From a virus (taxonomy: Duplodnaviria > Heunggongvirae > Uroviricota > Caudoviricetes): DNA of 22,587 nt. Below, piece after piece: positions 2,051 to 22,587 of this stretch. The stretch lies in the IMG/VR virus record IMGVR_UViG_2547132415_000022, positions 1 through 22,587 of that record; one strand, 5' to 3'. The notes beneath the pieces were generated by a model. That model worked only from the letters and a program-made list of their open reading frames with translations, did not search any database and had not been told where the DNA came from. Within the stretch, counting starts at the first letter, position 1; each line of letters starts with the position of its first letter. A program made the position numbers and the translations under genes.

Positions 2051-2951
2051 CCGAGCCTCCGGTCACGACGCTGTATTCGGTGCAGAAAGACGCCTGCGTA
2101 CTGTTGAGCACAATGTCGGCCAGTGGTGCGGCCAGCTCGACACGCTGCACGCCTTCCACATGCAACGCGGCATAAATGGCAGACAGACGGATGTCGCGCC
2201 CCAGCCGGTGCTGTGCCGTGATGTACGCTTCCAGCTTTTTCACGGCAGCAGCGCGGATGGGTTCGCTTTCGGGACCAGGGTAAAGGTAAAGCGTGGCGTT
2301 TATCTGGTATTCAACGATGGCGGCAGACTGCACGGTCACGCGGTCGGCCACCGGCCTGACGTCCTCGCCATTAAGGGCGTTACGCACCACGGCCAGCAGG
2401 TCTTCGGATGCGACGCCGTTATTTTCACGTGACAGCACAGAGATAGTGACGCAGGCCGGAGACGGACTGGTGACAGAGATATCCGCGACACGCCCGTCGG
2501 CACTGCGGCCATGATACTGATAGGCTCCCACCGACCCGGCGACGCTTAAGCCCTCAAATGCCTGCTGAATACGCAGACGATAATCGGTGTCAGATTCCAT
2601 CACTGCCGGTGTCGGCGGAATGGTCGAATCATCTGCCGGGGTGATAATCAGGCGCGTGGTGTTGTAATTGGCACCAATTACATCAAGGTCATTACCGGCG
2701 GCACAAGCCAGCATCACCGCCCGTGCGGCCTCATTCACACGCTGACGCCAGATAAGCTCACGATAAGCATTTTCCTCCAGCAGTTTGACGAGAGGCTCAG
2801 ATTCCAGCGTCAGGGTACGGGCGACCGCCTCCTGCTGGTCTTCCGGGTAAAGGGAAATCAGTGTCGCCTTGCGTTCGGCAAGAATGGTTTCAAAGTCCAG
2901 CTCCTCGACCACATCCGGTGCGGGTAGCTGATTCAGGTCGATAATCGGCAT
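2043..2951 (-). CDS. J: Baseplate assembly protein J
   Basis: 302 aa ORF beginning MPIIDLNQLPAPDVVEELDFETILAERKA, recognised as P2 gpJ; overlaps I by a few nucleotides, typical of translationally coupled tail genes. Confidence 0.9.
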   Translation of the reverse strand: MPIIDLNQLPAPDVVEELDFETILAERKATLISLYPEDQQEAVARTLTLESEPLVKLLEENAYRELIWRQRVNEAARAVMLACAAGNDLDVIGANYNTTRLIITPADDSTIPPTPAVMESDTDYRLRIQQAFEGLSVAGSVGAYQYHGRSADGRVADISVTSPSPACVTISVLSRENNGVASEDLLAVVRNALNGEDVRPVADRVTVQSAAIVEYQINATLYLYPGPESEPIRAAAVKKLEAYITAQHRLGRDIRLSAIYAALHVEGVQRVELAAPLADIVLNSTQASFCTEYSVVTGGSDE

Positions 2952-2955
2952 GGTT

Positions 2956-3303
2956 TCAACTCACAGGAATGGTTAACGAAAGTGGCTGGCCGGTGTCGTT
3001 GTGCTGACCGGTTAACGTGACCGTCATTCGCCCGTCAAAACTGCGCTCAGTGGTGACGGATGACAGGGTGACGCGGGGTTCCCATTTCAGTACCGCCATG
3101 TAACAGGCGACCTTAATCTGCAACTCAAGCGCCAGGGTCTGCGGCTGGTCAATCATTGACGCCAGCAACGAACCGTAATCACGACGCATCACCCGTGAGC
3201 CGACCGGCGTGCGCAGGATATCGCCGATACTCTGGCTGATATGCTCAAGGTCAGTGACAGTCAGGCCATCACAGCGATTCATTCCGAGATAACGTGCTGT
3301 CAT
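2956..3303 (-). CDS. W: Baseplate wedge protein W
   Basis: 115 aa ORF, same length as P2 gpW as I recall it, between V and J. Confidence 0.85.
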   Translation of the reverse strand: MTARYLGMNRCDGLTVTDLEHISQSIGDILRTPVGSRVMRRDYGSLLASMIDQPQTLALELQIKVACYMAVLKWEPRVTLSSVTTERSFDGRMTVTLTGQHNDTGQPLSLTIPVS

Positions 3304-3935
3304 AGAGGACTCCCGGTTGTGCCGCCGCTGTCGCCGGGGTGTTTATGGGTATGCAGTACCTTACCGTTTGATGAGAGTTCACCGCCGGTGTGTTCAATGT
3401 TGCCGCGCATCGTCCCGCCCTTCTGTACTTCCAGCGTGCCGGTAATCAGCCTGTTGGTGCAGACCACCTCCGGTGTGTCCAGGGTGATGCGGGTTGGCGC
3501 TTTCACCATGACCACCGGCACCGTGGCGGTAACAGAATCAGAAGCCGTCACGCTGGCCGTTTTAATTCCGCTTACCGTGAGTGCACTGGTTTCAGGTTCA
3601 TACTCAATCACCGCCCCGTCAGGAAAACGGATATGCAGGGCATCCGCCGACGCAGACGGCGCGGGGTTATCGCCGGAATAAATCCCCGGCAGAACGAACG
3701 CCGTGTCGAGTTCACCACCCACGGCCAGAATCAGCACCTGCTCCCCCACGGAAGGTGCCCACCATGTGCGCGAACGACCGGCACGATGGGTCAGCCACTG
3801 AAGCCAGTCGGTGCACATGCCACCGGTCTGCACACGGCAGCGACCGGCTTTAAGGTCGGTTTCTACGACAAGGCCAGTACGAATCATGTTGCGCAGTGCG
3901 CGCGCGAGTTCCTGAATATTTGCGAGAGTGTTCAT
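3300..3935 (-). CDS. V: Baseplate spike / central hub protein V
   Basis: 211 aa ORF beginning MNTLANIQELARALRNMIRTGLV, recognised as P2 gpV; 4 nt overlap with W. Confidence 0.9.
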   Translation of the reverse strand: MNTLANIQELARALRNMIRTGLVVETDLKAGRCRVQTGGMCTDWLQWLTHRAGRSRTWWAPSVGEQVLILAVGGELDTAFVLPGIYSGDNPAPSASADALHIRFPDGAVIEYEPETSALTVSGIKTASVTASDSVTATVPVVMVKAPTRITLDTPEVVCTNRLITGTLEVQKGGTMRGNIEHTGGELSSNGKVLHTHKHPGDSGGTTGSPL

Positions 3936-4454: not shown

Positions 4455-4914
4455 CCCACTTGCTCACCAGTTCGCCATTGATATAAAGCTCCATCGGGCG
4501 GGTGACCGGCTCCGGCGGCGGAGGTTCCGGGATATTCTTCACATGCAGCGCACCGTCCACCTCACTGACCAGCGTGCGCTCGGTCAGCATCAGGCTGATG
4601 CTGATATCAAAGCTGCTGTCATTGTTGATGTCTGCATAAAACGTGAAGCCCTTTTTCTGGCCTGCGTCGGTGGTCATGATGTCGGGCTGATTTTCCCGCA
4701 GCCACGCCAGCACCGGCACGATGAGCAGGTCAAAATCACCGGTAAAGTCGGTCACAATCACATTGAGCGTGTAACGCTTTTCGAATGACAACGACGCCGC
4801 CAGTGTGGAGGCAATACTCCCGTTATCCACGAATATCCGCAGCATATCGGGGTTAGTTTTCAGCACCGTGACGGCATCAGTCAGCGCCCTGCGCAGGCTG
4901 TCGGGTTTGAGCAT
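4447..4914 (-). CDS. R: Tail completion protein R
   Basis: 155 aa ORF beginning MLKPDSLRRALTDAVTVLKTNPDMLRIF, recognised as P2 gpR; overlaps S by 8 nt. Confidence 0.85.
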   Translation of the reverse strand: MLKPDSLRRALTDAVTVLKTNPDMLRIFVDNGSIASTLAASLSFEKRYTLNVIVTDFTGDFDLLIVPVLAWLRENQPDIMTTDAGQKKGFTFYADINNDSSFDISISLMLTERTLVSEVDGALHVKNIPEPPPPEPVTRPMELYINGELVSKWDE

Positions 4915-5167
4915 CGTTTTCGTCCTGACAGTGTTTAATCATTTTTACCTGGCTGGCACAGCGTGCCAGCGCGTTCTCAAGCTGCCGGATATCAGCACTT
5001 AAATCGCCGTTCGTCTCCGGGTCACTGCCCGGCATCGGGCAAAGGCTCACTTTCGGGCAGGCGTTATGGACAATCACTGGCGTCGGTGCAGGCGGGGCGC
5101 TGGTGCAACCGGCGCACAGCATCAGGCAGGTCAGCACCGTACCAGCGGCGAAAATCTTCGTTTTCAT
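4877..5167 (-). CDS. lysC: LysC, Rz1-like outer-membrane spanin (lipoprotein), embedded out of frame in the 3' part of lysB
   Basis: 96 aa ORF with lipoprotein signal and lipobox (MKTKIFAAGTVLTCLMLCAGC), proline-rich mature part; overlaps lysB in another frame, the classic embedded o-spanin arrangement. Confidence 0.8.
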   Translation of the reverse strand: MKTKIFAAGTVLTCLMLCAGCTSAPPAPTPVIVHNACPKVSLCPMPGSDPETNGDLSADIRQLENALARCASQVKMIKHCQDENDAQTRQPAQGAD

Positions 5168-5447
5168 TCAGTAACCTCGTGATGGTTTTCTCGCGCTGTG
5201 CTTCACGCTTCGCGGCGTTCTCCAGTTCCTGACGCAGTGCCACCTGCGCCAGCTCGTTTTTGTCTGCCCTGGTGAGTGCAACATGAAGCTGGTTTTTCAG
5301 CATGGTGATGGTCGTCTGCTGCCCGCTGGCGACGTTGTTCGCCCTGTCCAGCGAGGCGCGCAGGCTGGCATTTTTGTGTTTCACCAGAAACAGACCGGAC
5401 ACCGCCAGCGATAACAACACGACCAGCACAATCATCATCTTTGACAT
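5064..5447 (-). CDS. lysB: LysB, Rz-like inner-membrane spanin
   Basis: 127 aa ORF with N-terminal hydrophobic segment (MSKMMIVLVVLLSLAVSGLFLV) followed by a charged, coiled-coil-like region; position after lysA. Confidence 0.8.
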   Translation of the reverse strand: MSKMMIVLVVLLSLAVSGLFLVKHKNASLRASLDRANNVASGQQTTITMLKNQLHVALTRADKNELAQVALRQELENAAKREAQREKTITRLLNENEDFRRWYGADLPDAVRRLHQRPACTDASDCP

Positions 5448-5860
5448 GGTTCCCGCCCCTCAAAACGCTGACGGCAGGCCGTACGTATCAGCCGGAAGAA
5501 CACCGATGCCACGAGATAAATCAGCGCGGTAAAAATCCACCCGGCAGCGACCAGCGAGATAAACGTCGCCACCATCACCACCAGAGCCACCGCCCGTCTG
5601 CACCACGTCACCGGCTGCAAAAACAGCGACGTGACAATCTTCACAGCCAGCGATTCCGGCGGCAGCTCCCGCCCGTAGCGTTCCAGCACATACTCAGTGG
5701 CATACACGCCGACACCACCGGCAACCACACAGATAACCGTCGCCAGAATCGCCCAGGCGGCGACAAAATTGACGGCCACGCTCTGCGGGTAAATCAGGGA
5801 CAGTGCCAGCATCAGCGCCAGCGACACGTTCAGCATCAGTGAAAGGGATAATTTCTTCAT
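5435..5860 (-). CDS. lysA: LysA, lysis timing / antiholin-like membrane protein
   Basis: 141 aa ORF with multiple hydrophobic helices, sitting between K and lysB as in P2. Confidence 0.75.
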   Translation of the reverse strand: MKKLSLSLMLNVSLALMLALSLIYPQSVAVNFVAAWAILATVICVVAGGVGVYATEYVLERYGRELPPESLAVKIVTSLFLQPVTWCRRAVALVVMVATFISLVAAGWIFTALIYLVASVFFRLIRTACRQRFEGREPCQR

Positions 5861-13687: not shown

Positions 13688-14752
13688 ATGAGCACTCAGC
13701 AAGTCCTCAACATCCCTACAGCCGTATCGCAAGCGACCATCGAAAAATGGTTGAAAGGACTGGAACAGACAACGGAATTAGCCTTTTTTCGCCGTGTTGG
13801 CGGGCGGCATGGCTTCAATGTTACGAGCCGCTGGGCAAGTACATTGGATAACTTGAATAAAACTCTGAATGACCCATCGAAGCAAGGTACGCCTGCAAAC
13901 TTTTCAAATCTCCGTTTGATTACGTTAAAAATAATCACTAGCGTAAACCATTATTATTCAATTGATGGTATTAAATCAGGAACCATTAATTTAATACCAA
14001 ATATAATCAACTACCCTCACCTCGATAAAACATTTAGCTCAGTATTTCCAATAAAACTTGATGATAATACAGGACTTCCTTCGACTCCTGGGCATTTCAT
14101 TACTTCCATCGAAAAAATGGGGGATGGTATTGCTGTAATATATTCCTATATTATTTTAAGAAAAATCCAAGGAAGGAGTAAGCTACGTAGCAATCAATAT
14201 CCAGAGCAGTACTTCAACACTGTTTTCATCCCTAATGATTTAAGCCGTATAGAATATCGGGTTGATAAATCACTAGGTAAAAGAGCGTCTGAAAAAGCGA
14301 TGGCAGATTTGCGCGCAAAATTTAATGAATTACTCGTGGAACTTAATATTAAGTTAGCTGTTGAAACTATAAATTTCTACAAAGCAATTTCCAATATTTA
14401 CCTTGACAAACAATATGGAAGACTTGTTCAGGTTAATTTCCTTGATCCAAATGGAGATGAGGATGCTGTTCTTCGTTGCAGAACAGACCCCAATTATGAT
14501 GCCCGTTATCGCGAGGTTGTATCTAAAACTCAGAACGGAACACCTCGCTCATTGACCCTTGAAGTTTCTGGCGTTGCAGTGCGATTAGATAGTAAAGTTG
14601 CAAACGAAACAATTTCAAATGAAATTGGTTTTGAACCCAGCAAAACTGATTGGTCTACAAACAAATTTTGTGGGGATTTTTATTTTACACAAACAGCAGA
14701 TCATCAGGTGCATTATGGGGTGATAAATGATTTACTCACAAGAGCGAAATAA
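13688..14752 (+). CDS. Hypothetical protein, 354 aa; first gene of an AT-rich cargo cassette; no recognisable catalytic motif
   Basis: ATG at 13688 with an AGGAA RBS 9 nt upstream; strongly AT-rich (roughly mid-30s percent GC by eye) against a >50 percent GC backbone; not a P2 gene; no Walker A or other motif found on inspection. Confidence 0.7.
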   Translation: MSTQQVLNIPTAVSQATIEKWLKGLEQTTELAFFRRVGGRHGFNVTSRWASTLDNLNKTLNDPSKQGTPANFSNLRLITLKIITSVNHYYSIDGIKSGTINLIPNIINYPHLDKTFSSVFPIKLDDNTGLPSTPGHFITSIEKMGDGIAVIYSYIILRKIQGRSKLRSNQYPEQYFNTVFIPNDLSRIEYRVDKSLGKRASEKAMADLRAKFNELLVELNIKLAVETINFYKAISNIYLDKQYGRLVQVNFLDPNGDEDAVLRCRTDPNYDARYREVVSKTQNGTPRSLTLEVSGVAVRLDSKVANETISNEIGFEPSKTDWSTNKFCGDFYFTQTADHQVHYGVINDLLTRAK

Positions 14753-15161
14753 AAAAATGCGCTCATTAGTGTATAAACAAAGAGTACTCCTGGAGAATGC
14801 CGGAAGCTCTTCTGTTTTCATAAATAATGATTCTCACATATATTATACAAATTTACTAGAATATGTAGAGGGTGATCTTGATCGTAATATTTATACAATC
14901 CCAGTATTACGAAAAGCCATAAAAACTGACAATTATGAACATTTGCTACGAGTTGTTCAATTTTTTAGTAGCAATACCTCCTGTTTATTTAACGTTAAAT
15001 ATTGCTACGAACTAGAAAACATGGAGTTTGAGGACATACAAGCTGATGAATATACCAACTATATATTAAACGGAGTTGAACCTGTAACTGCCAATGGTTC
15101 TGAAATTGAAGACTTCAATCCAAAATATCTTTCATTTTATTGCATAATAAACCTGGATTGA
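14727..15161 (+). CDS. Hypothetical small acidic protein, 144 aa (134 aa if it starts at the ATG at 14757); second cargo gene
   Basis: Overlaps the 3' end of the first cargo gene by 26 nt, suggesting translational coupling; same AT-rich composition; no recognisable motif. Confidence 0.6.
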   Translation: MIYSQERNKKMRSLVYKQRVLLENAGSSSVFINNDSHIYYTNLLEYVEGDLDRNIYTIPVLRKAIKTDNYEHLLRVVQFFSSNTSCLFNVKYCYELENMEFEDIQADEYTNYILNGVEPVTANGSEIEDFNPKYLSFYCIINLD

Positions 15162-15166
15162 CTGTC

Positions 15167-16027
15167 ATGAACAAACAACAAATCACATGTGAGTTAGGCA
15201 AAAGGGTTCATTTTGAAGATGAAGCGAGTTTTATTGAAACATTATACTCGGATATAGAAGTCATAATAAAACTAATGGAGCAATCTAGTGACAAGTATTA
15301 TTGTGATGATGAAGATAAACTAAGCCATACAATTGTAGCCTCTCTTGTACACCTAGGTTACGATGCAACCGAACAAACAAAAAAAAATGGAAGTGTGGAC
15401 ATAACCGTTCGTCCGAAAAATGGAGGATATACATGGATTGCTGAAGCAAAAATCGGATACGGGAACCAAAAAATATTCGAGGGGCTACTTCAGTTGCTTA
15501 CTCGCTATGTTAAAAGAGATAATCATGCAGGCATGGTTATCTATTATCAAAAATCAAAGTCATCTTATCATTTCAAACAATGGCTGAAATACATATACAA
15601 CCATGAGTGGAAGGATTATTGTACAAAGAAAGGGTCATTAAAAAAAGCGACTCCGCTACTTTCTCATTTAAAAAGTACGGTTTGTCCGAAAGTCAAACAA
15701 GGCTGTTGTTATGCTGACATTGATGTCATCCAACCTTCGACTGATGGTCTAAAACTTCGCTGCTTCTATATTGACGTGCATCATGACCCAATTGACAGTA
15801 GTGGTTTAAAGAATAAGTCAATCGCCTTTGGTCAAGCCCAAAATAGAATTAGAGATTTATATCACTTATGGAAGACAGGACAGTTCGACGGCAGTATGAT
15901 AGATGAATTATTTGAAGAAATAAAAATATATCATAGCAATGAACTTGACGAAGAATATGAAGATGAAGATGAAGATGAAGATGAAGATGAAGATGAAGAT
16001 GAAGATTCGAATATAAACTCAAAATGA
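15167..16027 (+). CDS. Hypothetical protein with a PD-(D/E)xK nuclease-like motif and a poly-acidic C-terminal tail; third cargo gene (ORF track starts it at a TTG at 15140)
   Basis: ATG at 15167 lies 5 nt after the stop of cargo gene 2. Protein contains GSVDITVRPKNGGYTWIAEAKIG, a D-x15-E-x-K pattern in a strand-like context resembling the restriction-endonuclease fold active site. C-terminus is EEYEDEDEDEDEDEDEDEDSNINSK. Confidence 0.65.
   Translation: MNKQQITCELGKRVHFEDEASFIETLYSDIEVIIKLMEQSSDKYYCDDEDKLSHTIVASLVHLGYDATEQTKKNGSVDITVRPKNGGYTWIAEAKIGYGNQKIFEGLLQLLTRYVKRDNHAGMVIYYQKSKSSYHFKQWLKYIYNHEWKDYCTKKGSLKKATPLLSHLKSTVCPKVKQGCCYADIDVIQPSTDGLKLRCFYIDVHHDPIDSSGLKNKSIAFGQAQNRIRDLYHLWKTGQFDGSMIDELFEEIKIYHSNELDEEYEDEDEDEDEDEDEDEDSNINSK
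15959..16006 (+). repeat. Perfect hexanucleotide microsatellite (GAAGAT)x8 inside cargo gene 3, encoding a poly-Glu-Asp tail
   Basis: Eight uninterrupted GAAGAT copies read directly from the sequence; in-frame. Confidence 0.95.
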
Positions 16028-16040
16028 ACACCAAGAATCA

Positions 16041-16161: not shown

Positions 16162-18432
16162 TTAATTAGGAAAAACACTCCCAGTTGGAATTTTTTTAAA
16201 TTTATATTTCCTCCCATCGAAACATACTGTCGCACCGCGTGCTAATACCTGTGGTTCCCATTGATTCGGCGTAATACCCTCCTGAGCCAACTCGAATCTT
16301 ATACGTGGCGTCTGTTCCCGTTCAGCTTTTGTCATTCGTCCTGAGGGCGCTATCTGATAAGGTTTTAATGGCTCACAGCTCTTTTGCTGGCGATTTGGTC
16401 GTGGCGCATCGTGTTTTAGTGCGCATCTGAGCACCGTCACGACTTCAGGGTCATCCCAGCCGATAACCCCGCGCTCAATCAGATTCAACACCGCTGCTGC
16501 TTGCTCAGAAGGTATGGATGTCATAGCAGGATCGCCACCGCTAGTTAGCTTTCCACAGTTATTGACAGGACTCCGAGGCGCGGCGATGCCGCTTTTTAAA
16601 GTCAAAGGCTCAACGACCGGAACTTTCGGCACAATGCGCCAGTCCGTCGTTCTGGTGATATGAATATGACGCGCGCCGAGATGCGGCGCGTAAATGCCGA
16701 CCACCCTCTCGACCTCTTCCTCGTACTCGTTAACGTCATCCGACGGGCTACGGGCGACTCTGACAGTCTGACAATCGCGCGGGACATTTGCCCCACCCTG
16801 CGCGCTGATATACAACGCAAAATCACCACTGTCTGCGGCGGCGCGTGCAGCCTCGACGCGCTCGTCAAACTCATCAGCAATGCTGACGCCGCGCGGCAAT
16901 TTGCGTAGTTCACGGTAAGCCCCCATTGTCGGCAGACCAACCGTTTTAAATTGCGGGATGCGCCACGTTGACGCCCATGCGGTAACAGCCGCAGCAGTGT
17001 CTTTCAGCGGCCTGCCGGTATCGTTATCGAGCTGACCATCCAGTGCATAGCCGTCGATGTTTTTTGAGATGTATTTCGCGATATACCCCGCAGCACCGCC
17101 CCGGTTAAGGTGTTTTGCCTGAAAACGGTTTCGCGCGGCTCCTCTTTCATCGCCATCCTCTTTGAGCGCATAGCGACGCATGATTTCGATAATCTGGTTA
17201 CGCTGGCGCGGATTACAAAAAAGCATCATATGCCAGTGCGGCGTTCCGTCGTGGTGTGGCTCGACGACACGCAAACCGTAGACCTGTAAATCATTATCCT
17301 TGAATGCCGTGCGCATCAGGCTCCAGATACGGCAGAGATAACGCTGCGCATCCTTTGGATTAAATGCCTCATCGTTCCAGCCGTGATTTAGCTGGACGGT
17401 TTTACTTTCGCCTTTTCTGACCTGACGTGTCGGGTGATACTTTGACGGCGCGGTCAGCGTGATAAACATCCCCACATCACCCTCTGCTGCGGCGTAACGC
17501 TCAATACCGGCAATGGTGTTCATCAGCTCCATCCGGCGAATTTCAGGATTAGAAATACTGCCCATCACCTTACTGATAAGGTCGATGCGCTCGCCGGTTT
17601 CCCTGTTTTCGAGATCACACGATTTAAGAAATTCCAGATTTGCCTGGCGGCGTGCACGCACATCACGAATGGCATGTTTACTGGCATAAGGAGAACGGTC
17701 TTTATTGACCTCCCCGACAGCAATCAGTAACGCCTCATGCCAGCGCATACGCTGGCCTTTAAGCTGATGGGTCCACCACTCATCGTTAAACAGACGGGCA
17801 ATGGCAGAATATGCCTGCCTCGTGGTCATCTGCCCTTTACGGTATTTTTTCCAGTAGAGCGGGGAAATATTGAAAGCACGTGCAGCACCAGCAACATGAC
17901 CATAGAGGTGAGCCTGCGCCTCATCCGTAAACAGCGATTCTTTTTCGCCATGCGCATCCCCCCAGGCATCGCAGAGTTCCTCATACATCATGAAAAGCTG
18001 CGATGAGATACGGGCGGCAAACTTTTTCAGCTCCTTGTCATTCATCCCCGGCAGACGCGCATAATGGTCACGCTCTGCCAGAAACAGCAACGACGCGTCG
18101 GTGTTCATTTTATGGCGCTGATTCACACGCTCAATGCGCGGCCATAAACGACGCTGAAAAGTGGATGTGAGAAAATAAAACCCGTGCACCGGGCTTTTAT
18201 TGCGCCGGATGTAGTCATAGCGTGACGTAAACAGCGAGCGCAAAAAGTAAGGCAGGCGGTTAATCGTGGATAAAACACCTTGCACCTGACGCATCTCGTC
18301 ACGTGTAAGGGGTCTTTCGCGCCCGACAGCCTCGCGTGGCGCGTTCCATGCATAAGCACCGGTAAACGCCTTACCGGTGCCTGCGGCAAATGCTGACGGA
18401 GGGACAAAACGCCCGGAGGCTTTAACGGCCAT
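16162..18432 (-). CDS. A: Replication initiation endonuclease A (rolling-circle initiator)
   Basis: ORF-track frame 16162..18474 (TTG start); probable start is the ATG at 18430-18432 (MAVKASGRFVPPSAFAAGTGK), as I recall for P2 gpA. Contains the HUH-like PHWHMMLF and the paired-tyrosine YIAKYISK motifs expected of this nicking enzyme. Confidence 0.9.
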   Translation of the reverse strand: MAVKASGRFVPPSAFAAGTGKAFTGAYAWNAPREAVGRERPLTRDEMRQVQGVLSTINRLPYFLRSLFTSRYDYIRRNKSPVHGFYFLTSTFQRRLWPRIERVNQRHKMNTDASLLFLAERDHYARLPGMNDKELKKFAARISSQLFMMYEELCDAWGDAHGEKESLFTDEAQAHLYGHVAGAARAFNISPLYWKKYRKGQMTTRQAYSAIARLFNDEWWTHQLKGQRMRWHEALLIAVGEVNKDRSPYASKHAIRDVRARRQANLEFLKSCDLENRETGERIDLISKVMGSISNPEIRRMELMNTIAGIERYAAAEGDVGMFITLTAPSKYHPTRQVRKGESKTVQLNHGWNDEAFNPKDAQRYLCRIWSLMRTAFKDNDLQVYGLRVVEPHHDGTPHWHMMLFCNPRQRNQIIEIMRRYALKEDGDERGAARNRFQAKHLNRGGAAGYIAKYISKNIDGYALDGQLDNDTGRPLKDTAAAVTAWASTWRIPQFKTVGLPTMGAYRELRKLPRGVSIADEFDERVEAARAAADSGDFALYISAQGGANVPRDCQTVRVARSPSDDVNEYEEEVERVVGIYAPHLGARHIHITRTTDWRIVPKVPVVEPLTLKSGIAAPRSPVNNCGKLTSGGDPAMTSIPSEQAAAVLNLIERGVIGWDDPEVVTVLRCALKHDAPRPNRQQKSCEPLKPYQIAPSGRMTKAEREQTPRIRFELAQEGITPNQWEPQVLARGATVCFDGRKYKFKKIPTGSVFPN

Positions 18433-18697
18433 ATGAGCCAAAAGCCTCTGAACAACGCTTGCTGAGTTGCTCAACCTGCACGTTTAAATCAGCAAAAGAC
18501 TTTGCGCTTCCGGTCAGAATATCGTGATGCATCAGGCCGGAAACGAGCTGGCTTAATTTCGGGTAATAACCAACCACCGACAGCCATTCCTGACCGGCGT
18601 TTTTACCGCTTTCCGCTCTCTTTTTCTCGTGGAGAATAAACTGAAAGCTGTCACTGGTAACGACATAACGTTCGCCAATTTCAATACGAATACTCAT
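18422..18697 (-). CDS. Small early-operon protein, P2 orf83-like
   Basis: 91 aa ORF immediately upstream of A, overlapping its start by 11 nt; occupies the orf83 position of the P2 early operon. Confidence 0.6.
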   Translation of the reverse strand: MSIRIEIGERYVVTSDSFQFILHEKKRAESGKNAGQEWLSVVGYYPKLSQLVSGLMHHDILTGSAKSFADLNVQVEQLSKRCSEAFGSYGR

Positions 18698-18918
18698 GCC
18701 GTTCTCCGGTAATGTTTGTTTTTTGCTTCAAAGACTGACTGACAGGAAACACAACGCGTGGCTGACGGATAAGCCGCACGACGGGCAGCAGGTATTGGCG
18801 CGTCACACTCTTCGCAAACCAGCGCAGAAGCACCGCAATGTTTTACCCTTGCCGCGTTAATCTGGCGCTCCAGTAATTCAGCCTGTTGCTCCTGAATAAA
18901 ATCTACGTTGTCCGGCAT
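18694..18918 (-). CDS. DksA/TraR-type C4 zinc-finger protein, P2 orf82-like
   Basis: 74 aa ORF with two Cys pairs (CEEC near the middle, CVSC near the C-terminus), as in TraR/DksA-family zinc fingers; orf82 position. Confidence 0.65.
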   Translation of the reverse strand: MPDNVDFIQEQQAELLERQINAARVKHCGASALVCEECDAPIPAARRAAYPSATRCVSCQSVFEAKNKHYRRTA

Positions 18919-18920
18919 TA

Positions 18921-19223
18921 TCAGCTCCTTTTATCGTTAAGTTTCCTGGATACATCAGCGCAATAACTGGCAAGTTCTGTCGTTAATTTTGTCAGTTCAT
19001 CCACGGAGGAAATTTGCTTGTGGAATACAGCGCGTTTAACAAGTAAATTGACCACATCAGACAGGAGGTTTAATTCATTCTGATAAATCGCGATAACAGA
19101 TTCAGTGATGTCGCGTTTTTCTTTATCAAGACAAAGTTGAATAAGAGACAAATCACCATTTTCCATAACGGCGATTTTTAAGGCGTTATTCAGTAATACA
19201 ACTGAATGAGAACAGGACATCAA
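18921..19223 (-). CDS. Hypothetical 100 aa protein at the orf81 position; markedly AT-rich
   Basis: ORF with ATG start; composition visibly more AT-rich than the flanking early genes; no motif recognised. Confidence 0.55.
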
Positions 19224-19444
19224 AGCACCTCCCCGCGAGACAATCCGATATTGTGAAATTTTTCCGACTCCTGACTGAGCAGCTCGACTATCTCCACGCG
19301 GGATAACTCCGCCTTTGTGATGTGGCGAATCATGGCGTCAAGATGAGAAGAAAAGCGCGTCGCTGCGTCGGCCTGTGCTTCGGTTCTGGCCTGTTGCAGC
19401 AGTAATGCGTATTTACCGCACTGATTTTCAGAAACTGTATGCAT
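19220..19444 (-). CDS. Small early-operon protein, P2 orf80-like
   Basis: ORF-track frame 19220..19477 begins with TTG; the ATG at 19442-19444 (MHTVSENQ) has a GGAGA RBS and gives 74 aa. Confidence 0.55.
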
Positions 19445-19507
19445 GACTTTCTCCAGGCAAAAAGAAGCCCCGCACAATTAAGTGCGTTAAAAACTCTGGT
19501 TAATTAC

Positions 19508-20008
19508 TTAATGCAGATATTGCTCTGGTTTTACCGACGTCAGAATTGTCGGTGCATACTCAAACAGGCTGAATAATTCACGTAATGCACGGAATAAGGC
19601 ATCACGCCAGTAACATGATTCTTCATTAATTCGCCAGTATGGCTGGTTGAATTCTTTTTCAGTCAATCCGGCATGCATAAATAAAGTACGGCGCTGACTG
19701 ACAGTTAAAAAGCTAATATATGCATACTCACTTGCACCGACCTGACGGCGTTTTGAGAATGCCCCACGCAGTTCATCAATTGCACAAACCAGCCGTTCAC
19801 GTTCGACGTCGTTCATTTCTTCAAAACGCATCGTTGCGTGACGTTGTTTTAACTGCGCATGAAAGCAAACCGTTAGCCGTTCGCGCTCCATCATCTGATT
19901 ATAATAATCACATGTCTCCTGCCAGCGAGGGACGGCAAGATGCTTGCCAATTATCCGGCGCATAGCTGCTGGCTGTTTTTCGACGAGATTGAGCGTCATC
20001 ACTGTCAT
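19508..20008 (-). CDS. B: Replication protein B (helicase loader)
   Basis: 166 aa ORF, same length as P2 gpB as I recall it; between the orf78-like and orf80-like ORFs in the early operon. Confidence 0.85.
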   Translation of the reverse strand: MTVMTLNLVEKQPAAMRRIIGKHLAVPRWQETCDYYNQMMERERLTVCFHAQLKQRHATMRFEEMNDVERERLVCAIDELRGAFSKRRQVGASEYAYISFLTVSQRRTLFMHAGLTEKEFNQPYWRINEESCYWRDALFRALRELFSLFEYAPTILTSVKPEQYLH

Positions 20009-20199
20009 TTCCAGACCCTCCGGCTTTTCAGAAAGGTCAGAGCCTTCTTTAACGGACTCTGTTTTTTGGTGCGGATAATGATTCCCTTACGCCCCTTACC
20101 GTGGGTGATGGTGAAGTCAATCGCCCTGGGGCTTTCGTTACGCAATAACTGAGCAATACAACGAGGCTCGTTCATACGGTTCTCCTTAACGTGGTTCAC
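20005..20199 (-). CDS. Small basic early protein, P2 orf78-like (start uncertain; GTG in the ORF track, with an internal ATG at MNEPRC)
   Basis: Short ORF between cox and B, overlapping both by a few nucleotides; Lys/Arg-rich. Confidence 0.45.
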   Translation of the reverse strand: MNHVKENRMNEPRCIAQLLRNESPRAIDFTITHGKGRKGIIIRTKKQSPLKKALTFLKSRRVWK

Positions 20200-20461
20200 C
20201 GAGACCTAACCACATCAACCAGCCGTCACGAATCTCTTTAGGGCGGCTTTCATAAGCCAGTTTTAGTCCGTTATTCCATGCCGGAAGGTATACCCAATAT
20301 TCACCTGCACGACCTGAAGCTGATTGTGGATCGGTCATATCAATTACAGGCAGCTTTCCTTTATCGATCATCCGACGAACCGCTCCTGTCGATTTTCCTA
20401 TTAGTTTTGCGAACTCCTGATAAGGAATCGCATCAGTCATGAGTGTTACTTGCTTGCTCAT
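20186..20461 (-). CDS. cox: Cox: excisionase and repressor of the Pc promoter
   Basis: 91 aa ORF beginning MSKQVTLMTDAIPYQEFAKLIGKSTGAVRRMIDKGKLPVID, recognised as P2 Cox; first gene of the early operon, divergent from C. Confidence 0.9.
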   Translation of the reverse strand: MSKQVTLMTDAIPYQEFAKLIGKSTGAVRRMIDKGKLPVIDMTDPQSASGRAGEYWVYLPAWNNGLKLAYESRPKEIRDGWLMWLGLGEPR

Positions 20462-20575
20462 GTCGTCCCCCAGCCCTCATGAATTGCGTTTAATGCCTTA
20501 TAATGCCTTTTAGTGCCCACATCCAAGCACTAAACAATCTACATCTAAACTAAATACTATTGAGATCTAAACACC
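20462..20575. promoter_or_regulatory. Immunity switch region: face-to-face Pe/Pc promoters and C-repressor operator direct repeats
   Basis: Intergenic region between cox and C. Direct repeats ATCTAAAC at 20543-20550 and 20565-20572, 22 bp centre to centre, match the two-turn spacing of P2 O1/O2 half-sites. TATAAT at 20499-20504 on the plus strand is a candidate Pc -10. Confidence 0.6.
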
Positions 20576-22110: not shown

Positions 22111-22269
22111 TATGCATAAGCCCTATCTCTGGTAACCGTCTTCCATTGACCACATCGATAGAATCCTCCTTCATAGCACGATGCCTTTCACTTATCGGCA
22201 TCGTGCTCCCACAGGTTCCGGCTACGCACAGCCAGAACGCGCATATTTGACGCTTACCAAAAAATATTC

Positions 22270-22587
22270 TCACTCTCCACATTTGAATGTCAGACGAGCG
22301 ACACCATGTAATCCTACACCTTCTGTCTTCAGCTCAACTATTTGCATTTTTTTGCCCTGAGTAACACAGAAATGAGTTGCATCATTTTTTACTATATTTT
22401 CTGCACCAGATATTCTACCCCTGGCTAAAGAAGCTTCGGCTTCGGTGTAGTATTGGTTATCGAGTTTACGCTGAATATTACTTTTATATGCAAGACCAAA
22501 TTTACCGATACTTGTCTCATCATTATGCACAGCACAACCAGACATAATAAAAATACTAATTAATGATATAGCAGCTATCTTTTTCAT
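22270..22587 (-). CDS. Host-encoded small lipoprotein (105 aa); start codon at the last three bases of the window
   Basis: Signal peptide with lipobox (MKKIAAISLISIFIMSGC); AT-rich; lies outside the att core and so is presumed chromosomal. Not identified further. Confidence 0.55.
   Translation of the reverse strand: MKKIAAISLISIFIMSGCAVHNDETSIGKFGLAYKSNIQRKLDNQYYTEAEASLARGRISGAENIVKNDATHFCVTQGKKMQIVELKTEGVGLHGVARLTFKCGE

Follow-up and report, generated by a model that had tools for sequence, protein, structure and literature searches.

AT-richness of the early gene orf81 in a P2-type prophage is an inherited trait of a fast-diverging DUF5405 branch

Introduction

Does a small, AT-rich reading frame inside the early operon of a temperate phage mark a gene that was acquired separately from its neighbors? 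The question is raised by one such frame in a stretch of 22,587 nucleotides of viral DNA (IMG/VR record IMGVR_UViG_2547132415_000022; hereafter the window). The initial annotation, made from the sequence alone, took the composition of this frame as a sign of separate acquisition and speculated that its product is an anti-defence or host-takeover factor. Small genes of this kind are familiar in temperate phages. The exo-xis region of lambda contains small early ORFs, including the TraR-like Orf73, that are dispensable in the laboratory and mostly of unknown function; the resemblance to the interval between orf80 and A of P2 is an analogy of organisation rather than a claim of sequence relationship, with a DksA/TraR-type zinc finger in both. 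In P2 itself, the old, tin and fun genes have promoters of their own and are expressed in the lysogen. The lysogenic-conversion or accessory genes of P2 (old/tin, in the A-Q interval and at one other locus) are AT-rich, non-essential and lineage-variable, as is orf81. Such variable genes of P2-like phages have been described at two loci, A-Q and one other, which turn over rapidly and carry defence systems (PMC9122126). Unlike the accessory genes of the A-Q interval, orf81 is part of the lytic early operon, occupies a fixed position in all Peduovirus and lacks its own promoter-like site.

Results

The AT-rich reading frame is P2 gene orf81

The window carries a P2-type prophage. Positions 18400-20500 are 97% identical to the P2 region from cox to A and are matched by 75 phage records, and the plus strand of the window carries the repressor gene C and int. 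The reading frame runs without interruption through 18921-19223 on the minus strand, and its original placement at the orf81 position proved correct. The frame is a real gene, but the 100 residues first assigned to it included an artefactual start: TTG 19223 is merely the first start-like codon past the upstream stop, as an ORF-listing program would report it, whereas the gene begins at ATG 19220, whose equivalent is annotated as the start in P2, and encodes 99 residues (Table 1). The product is the counterpart of P2 Orf81 (NP_046792; PHROG 265), with which it has in common the position between orf80 and orf82, the overlapping start and a low GC content (0.373 in P2). The two proteins are 88% identical, and the roughly 12 substitutions in the window protein fall in two clusters, the N terminus and the final 12 residues (contrasted with DEFKKLNDKRNW). 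At the DNA level divergence from P2 peaks at the 3' end of the gene (87% of positions match over 18900-19000, compared with 97-100% on either side), and the difference in length, 99 residues against 100 in P2, arises because the last codon of P2, for Trp, is replaced in the window by a TGA stop.

The TGA stop of orf80 (19222-19220) and the ATG of orf81 have one base in common, as they are annotated in P2, an arrangement that suggests translational coupling. Downstream, the ATG of orf82 lies two bases past the orf81 stop in the window, whereas the two genes overlap in P2. By its position, orf81 is predicted to belong to the Pe early operon and to be co-expressed with it; the cluster from orf80 to A lies downstream of the terminator-like hairpin in the gap between B and orf80. 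Pairwise gene-wide dN/dS values of 0.12-0.32 indicate purifying selection, and the flagged ORF is a real protein-coding gene. It is also a catalogued one, annotated in the P2 reference record and belonging to a family that already has a Pfam entry.

Table 1. Features of the early region of the window (coordinates are positions in the window).
Feature	Coordinates	Strand	Description and basis
cox	20186-20461	minus	comparison with P2 record
orf78	20005-20175	minus	comparison with P2 record
gene B	19508..20008	minus	replication protein, interacts with DnaB helicase; P2 annotation
terminator-like hairpin, B/orf80 gap	19471..19486	minus	coincides with the annotated putative rho-independent terminator of P2
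orf80 (DUF2732)	19220..19444	minus	upstream neighbor, 74 aa from the P2-equivalent ATG; Pfam PF10809, P2 annotation
orf81 Shine-Dalgarno GGAGGT	19227..19232	minus	six bases 5' of the ATG, within the 3' end of orf80; read from sequence
orf81	18921..19220	minus	99 aa, ATG start, TGA stop at 18923-18921; DUF5405-family small early protein
orf82 (DksA/TraR-type C4 zinc finger)	18694..18918	minus	downstream neighbor; Pfam PF01258 E 3e-11, PHROG 54
orf83 (second DUF5405 protein of the operon)	18422..18697	minus	Pfam PF17399 at 52.9 bits
gene A (rolling-circle replication nickase)	16162..18432	minus	last in cluster; start overlaps end of orf83

orf81 is conserved throughout the P2 lineage

All 75 Peduovirus isolates in the phage collection carry orf81, at 75-100% amino-acid identity, and alleles identical to that of the window occur in Yersinia phage L-413C, Salmonella phage FSLSP004 and vB_YpM_50. 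Among complete E. coli genomes, the gene was found at 1838 places (in 1605 of 5426 genomes), close to one for one with orf83 (1858 places); gene B was found at 1958. A phmmer search against 1.84 billion cluster representatives returned only 19 orf81 clusters at 50% identity, at least one of which was a spurious ankyrin-repeat protein, and the named sources of the matches (Escherichia, Citrobacter, Scandinavium, Klebsiella, Serratia, Edwardsiella and Edaphovirga) are all Enterobacterales. A narrower orf81 alignment, searched against species-representative genomes, yielded 5 loci. The full order cox-orf78-B-orf80-orf81-orf82-orf83-A was recovered from called genes in Klebsiella, Edwardsiella, Scandinavium and Serratia, and in Kosakonia, E. 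albertii and E. ruysiae the gene matches follow the P2 operon order; W-phi likewise carries orf81 in P2-like synteny. A short and degraded Edaphovirga contig has orf78-B-orf80-orf81, then truncated orf82 and A, with neither cox nor orf83. Across the six further enterobacterial genera examined, amino-acid identity of the syntenic orf81 proteins goes down to 37-38% (Serratia 38-41%). Based on gene content and order, orf81 is fixed in the P2 (gene-B-containing) lineage across Enterobacterales, always in the slot from orf80 to orf82 or orf83.

Absence of the gene was seen only outside Peduovirus, in 186 and SW9 (both Eganvirus) and in ENT4 (Table 2). Because these three phages do without it, orf81 is lineage-specific and dispensable at the level of the family. 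To that extent the suggestion of an accessory gene stands, but the separate acquisition read from its composition is not supported. Comparison of the gene orders suggests that orf80 and orf83 are the constant elements between orf80 and A, with orf81, orf82 and various enzymes behaving like cassettes over a long timescale. Across Peduoviridae the interval is a cassette site that changes slowly. Among isolates, gene B co-occurs with orf81 except in ENT4 and vB_YenM_31.17, the latter having been compared without the orf81 family profile. This co-occurrence had been considered as a functional link between B and orf81, and it is weakened by ENT4, in which B is accompanied by neither orf81 nor orf82.

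Table 2. Gene order between orf80 and A in phages and prophages of the comparison.
Phage or prophage	Order	Remark
P2 type	orf80-orf81-orf82-orf83-A	
186	orf80-orf82-exonuclease-orf83-PAPS-reductase-like-A	record marks all as not essential
SW9	orf80-orf82-orf83-(extra gene)-A	
Enterobacter phage ENT4 (loci L108 and L105)	orf80-orf83-A	gene B present; neither orf81 nor orf82
Citrobacter-type prophage (locus L095)	orf80-orf81-orf83-A	no orf82
Yersinia phage vB_YenM_201.16 (locus L107)	orf80-like gene, two adjoining DUF5405 genes, then A	

Low GC content is shared by all lineages and is largely set by the protein

The composition that drew attention to the gene was confirmed. The GC content of orf81 is 0.377 (GC1 0.47, GC2 0.30, GC3 0.36), compared with 0.51 for orf80, 0.52 for orf82, 0.46 for both orf83 and B, 0.53 for A and 0.515 for the window as a whole. 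Although 9% of 303-nt segments are as AT-rich as orf81 or more so, these are confined to the A-Q accessory hotspot (13763-16034) and the host flank (22250-22284), and orf81 has the lowest GC content in the conserved phage backbone of the window. The same gene is the AT-richest of the operon in all 15 of the lineages compared, at 0.355-0.44 against 0.44-0.60 for the other genes.

We estimated the GC content expected of each gene by resampling codons from the operon usage of its own lineage with the protein sequence held constant. The amino acids of orf81 alone predict a GC content of 0.40-0.46 across lineages, below the 0.51-0.55 of the operons; in the window the expected value is 0.436 and the observed value 0.377. 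The protein is poor in Gly, Ala, Arg and Pro (together only 11% of residues) and rich in Leu (16%), Ile, Asn and Lys. In addition, third positions in the window gene are more AT-rich than the resampled codons (GC3 0.364 versus 0.517 expected; p = 0.0005). A synonymous AT excess of this kind is significant in 8 of 13 lineages (p 0.0000-0.023), namely the window, P2, W-phi, vB_YpM_117 and the LSJC7, Citrobacter-type, Serratia and Edaphovirga loci (including L092, L095, L085 and L087, of which L095 is the Citrobacter-type locus), and is absent or non-significant in the other five (E. albertii, Kosakonia, Klebsiella, Edwardsiella and Scandinavium). A similar GC3 deficit is present in cox and B of the window phage. 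About half or more of the AT-richness of orf81 is therefore attributable to amino-acid composition, and the remainder is a lineage-dependent synonymous bias.

Low GC content recurs in every lineage and is largely predicted by the protein; it is therefore a long-standing, inherited trait of the family and not the mark of a recent import. Compared across P2-like phages, the slot holds a conserved gene of similar composition (75 of 75 Peduovirus isolates; low GC in 15 of 15 lineages). This is the outcome that the initial annotation had itself named as telling against its reading, and the earlier step from AT-richness to separate acquisition is not sustained. More generally, local AT-richness within a phage operon is not, by itself, evidence of horizontal acquisition.

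orf81 diverges faster than its neighbors and has mosaic alleles

Of the conserved genes in the stretch orf78 to A, orf81 ranks last in protein identity and first in dN in nearly every pairwise comparison. Identity to the Kosakonia protein is 67%, against 76-83% for the other genes, and to the Serratia protein 41%, against 42-72%. Copies in E. coli mostly match the window allele at 90-95% of DNA positions, whereas orf83 and B mostly match at 95-99%. A 96-residue allele, very common in E. coli and present in more than 1000 contigs, joins a different N-terminal half to a C-terminal half of the P2 type; it also occurs in vB_YpM_117 and E. albertii. In these latter two, an extra ORF of 81 residues (GC 0.41, with weak hints of a winged helix) is located between a shortened orf80 and the 96-residue orf81. 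This arrangement (positions 2523-3282 of locus L003, from vB_YpM_117, and locus L090, from E. albertii) corresponds to a cassette swap at the orf80/orf81 junction.

orf81 is a DUF5405 protein remotely related to orf83

The window protein matches the Pfam family DUF5405 (PF17399) at 104 bits (E 5.9e-30; residues 10-94 on profile positions 1-87 of 88), well above the gathering cut-off of 21.6 bits for the whole-protein score, and PHROG 265 along its full length (residues 1-99; E 1e-52). Precomputed PF17399 matches are also present on database homologues of orf81. An AlphaFold model (pLDDT 84.6, pTM 0.71) has an antiparallel sheet of four strands (residues 7-9, 14-18, 24-32 and 37-46) followed by a two-helix hairpin (49-66 and 73-98). 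Within the orf81 clade, conservation is highest at the end of strand 4 and in helix 1, and the region from strand 3 to strand 4 and the C-terminal helix are variable. Foldseek comparison with viral models (BFVD) gave matches, all at probability 1.00 with TM scores of 0.56-0.70, that include the DUF5405 proteins of Salmonella phage TR2 and Morganella phage MP1 and proteins of Lactobacillus phages; none of them is characterised. The homology and structure searches proposed at the outset thus supplied a family but no characterised relative, either among PDB sequences or among the Foldseek viral models: a profile search of PDB sequences returned no credible analogue of solved structure, NCBIfam gave no match, and no PADLOC family matched orf81 or orf83. 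In the literature on orf81, DUF5405 and the neighboring orf80, orf82 and orf83, we found only a comparison table that lists Orf81 as 'unknown', and no experiment.

BLASTP detects no similarity between orf81 and orf83. Alignment of the two families with hhalign, in contrast, gave a probability of 84% (E 7e-6) over 84 columns from end to end, which identifies orf81, at the level of profile comparison, as a remote paralogue of the gene two positions downstream. Orf83 of P2, CP83 of 186 and the wider DUF5405 group (PF17399, PHROG 154; for example Sf6 gp24) fall in the same Pfam family as orf81, and Orf83-type proteins have in common with it the length class, the predicted strand-strand-strand-strand-helix-helix topology and the location in an early operon. 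The two branches differ in range and in rate. Orf83-type proteins are found in P22-like, N4-like and T4-like phages and in phages of Bacillus and Lactobacillus, whereas the named sources of the orf81 branch are Enterobacterales only; within Peduovirus, Orf83 is well conserved (95-99%), and the orf81 branch diverges faster.

An intermediate between the two branches appears to exist in Yersinia phage vB_YenM_201.16, where gp10, the upstream of two DUF5405 genes, scores about equally against the two family profiles (8e-9 for orf81, 9e-10 for orf83) and adjoins the orf83 orthologue. This pair, together with the Citrobacter-type prophage in which orf81 stands directly beside orf83, suggests that orf81 is most likely an old tandem duplicate of an orf83-like gene, the upstream copy of which would have diverged fast and become fixed in the P2 lineage. 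A second DUF5405 gene may instead have been imported; since all close relatives of orf81 belong to its own clade, the two origins look alike in these data, and duplication fits at least as well.

Gene neighborhoods hint at a possible role in replication or recombination

To search for clues to function, we examined the neighbors of DUF5405 genes in other phages. In P2, the neighbor is the replication nickase gene A. A gene for a DnaQ-like exonuclease takes this place in two phages, 186 and Pseudomonas phage UF_RH7, and the set in Sf6 comprises erf, ssb and abc2; Morganella phage MP1 has genes for a gp46/47-like nuclease and a sliding clamp. The neighborhoods in Pylas, Eldridge and yong1 were uninformative. 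The adjacency to DnaQ-like exonucleases (UF_RH7, positions 2501-3648 of locus L103; 186, positions 4891-5747 of locus L002) occurs in two unrelated phage families and may be a functional link for DUF5405 as a whole; the UF_RH7 protein has 179 residues, and its N-terminal part is the DUF5405 domain. Because the neighbors in unrelated phages are replication or recombination genes, we favor a role for Orf81 as an accessory to one of these processes. As a guide to Orf81 itself this clue is weak, since it concerns the orf83-like majority of the family and not the divergent orf81 branch.

We tentatively propose that Orf81 is a non-enzymatic and dispensable adaptor, an assignment that we regard as possible but short of probable. 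Under this proposal, Orf81 would be made together with the replication proteins B and A and would bind a protein that takes part in DNA replication or recombination of the phage or its host; helix 1 and the end of strand 4 would provide the structural or interaction core, and the region from strand 3 to strand 4 and the C-terminal helix would tune specificity.

This proposal differs from the names carried by database records. The name 'replication initiation protein', given to Orf81 and in some cases also to Orf83 in NC_001895, NC_004745, NC_005056 and other records, comes only from PHROG 265 and 154 and RefSeq re-annotation. We found no support for it: Orf81 has no detectable homology to characterised initiators or helicase loaders, the sole related Pfam match being DnaB_2 at E 0.19, and the label conflicts with the record of 186, in which the DUF5405 homologue and its neighbors are non-essential. 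The lack of orf81 in ENT4 likewise speaks, indirectly, against a requirement for it in phage DNA replication. Several re-annotated records call the gene at the orf81 position 'minor tail protein' or 'tail fiber protein', for which no support was found either. A link to RecBCD inhibition through Sf6 gp24, a DUF5405 protein considered as the possible equivalent of P22 Abc1, was also rejected; Abc1 is a helix-turn-helix protein (sigma-70 region 4-like) and not a DUF5405 protein, and it is located on the other side of abc2.

Discussion

Taken together, these observations support, at a probability of about 0.5 for the explanation as a whole, the reading that the flagged frame is the DUF5405 gene orf81 of P2, that its AT-richness is inherited, that it arose as a duplicate and that its product is a replication-linked adaptor. 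The recent version of the reading that prompted this analysis, in which orf81 is a recently and separately acquired moron whose AT-richness marks a foreign origin, appears highly improbable. It can draw on the lowest GC content in the phage backbone (0.377), on a GC3 of 0.36 where operon codon usage predicts about 0.51, and on the phages 186, SW9 and ENT4, which lack the gene. Cox and B, however, have a similar GC3 deficit, the amino acids already predict a GC content of 0.40-0.46 everywhere, and both the slot and the low GC content persist even where synonymous sites are saturated and protein identity between lineages is only 37-67%. A recent arrival is also difficult to reconcile with the presence of the gene in every Peduovirus isolate and its near 1:1 ratio to orf83 in E. 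coli, with a start codon that overlaps the orf80 stop and no promoter-like site of its own, with homology to the nearby orf83, or with the published variable loci of P2-like phages, which are elsewhere (A-Q and one other; PMC9122126). Another alternative, that the AT-rich DNA itself is functional as a nucleoid-protein patch or regulatory site and the ORF secondary, we consider barely credible. The synonymous AT excess in the window, P2, W-phi, vB_YpM_117, L092, L095, L085 and L087 would be expected under it, and a terminator-like pattern, made up of a long but weak hairpin and a T-rich run behind it, does occur within the gene (19150-19177, minus strand; 11 pairs, only 3 of them G-C). In coding sequence this rich in A and T, the match is probably fortuitous. 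Against a function of the DNA, the synonymous bias is absent or non-significant in 5 of 13 lineages, the protein is under purifying selection and its fold is predicted with confidence, a consensus scan found no promoter-like site in or before orf81, and Rfam gave no match within it; an embedded promoter or RNA element was dropped as a candidate on these last two results.

The remaining alternatives accept orf81 as an old resident and differ from the adaptor proposal in the partner of its product. Orf81 could be a host-interface protein, with an anti-defence or host-takeover function, that co-evolves with a variable host target. Its protein identity, which in nearly every comparison falls below that of the other conserved genes in the stretch orf78 to A, its dN, the highest of the compared genes, the E. 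coli alleles at mostly 90-95% where orf83 and B are at 95-99%, and the mosaic 96-residue allele with a replaced N-terminal half in more than 1000 contigs are all as would be anticipated for such a protein, as is an early, small and dispensable gene beside a TraR-like regulator. Gene-wide dN/dS is nevertheless well below 1, neither sequence nor structure searches found similarity to characterised proteins, and there was no PADLOC match; the charge is approximately neutral (12 K+R, 13 D+E), so Orf81 is not a DNA mimic; and the very broad range of DUF5405, which includes virulent phages of Gram-positive hosts, points to a general role for the fold. On balance we regard a host-interface function as rather unlikely. 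A more specific version, which combines it with the duplicate origin, is less likely again: Orf81 would be a neofunctionalised duplicate of a pan-phage DNA-metabolism accessory of the Orf83/DUF5405 type, now a P2-lineage host-interface factor such as an inhibitor of host defence or of a replication-associated host protein, with the variable region from strand 3 to strand 4 and the mosaic alleles tracking host diversity. Finally, the adjacency of orf81 and orf82, 2 bases apart in the window and overlapping in P2, and the DUF5405 genes on both sides of orf82 raise the question of whether Orf81 works specifically with the TraR/DksA-like Orf82, as its partner or modulator, the two acting jointly on RNA polymerase. 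We consider this very unlikely, given the independent distribution of the two genes: orf82 is present without orf81 in 186 and SW9, the Citrobacter-type prophage and vB_YenM_201.16 carry an orf81-like gene without orf82, and no DksA/TraR neighbor is annotated for the DUF5405 genes of Sf6, Pylas, Eldridge, MP1, UF_RH7 and yong1. An obligate pairing, at least, is ruled out, as each gene is found without the other. The replication-linked adaptor is the reading that we retain. DUF5405 proteins are very widespread in phages, whether the hosts are Gram-negative or Gram-positive, and once a function is assigned to them, P2, whose early operon contains two diverged copies, would be a convenient model.

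Other features of the window

Three consecutive AT-rich ORFs of 354, 144 and 295 residues occupy 13688-16027 on the plus strand, between the portal gene Q and A, at the published defence hotspot of P2. This region holds nearly all of the lowest-GC segments of the sequence. None of the three ORFs has a Pfam match, and the last matches weakly (E 1.6e-7) the PADLOC candidate system PDC-S54; the region is probably an uncharacterised defence cassette. Beside it, the final 140 or so codons of gene A, at its 3' end (16162-16600, minus strand), match P2 and W-phi at only 60-70%, whereas the rest of the gene matches at 95-100%, which looks like a recombination boundary running into the adjoining hotspot. 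Just past int, an AT-rich ORF with a lipoprotein-like signal, MKKIAAISLISIFIMSGCAV, extends to the end of the window (22270-22587, minus strand), and this segment is presumably the host flank of the prophage.
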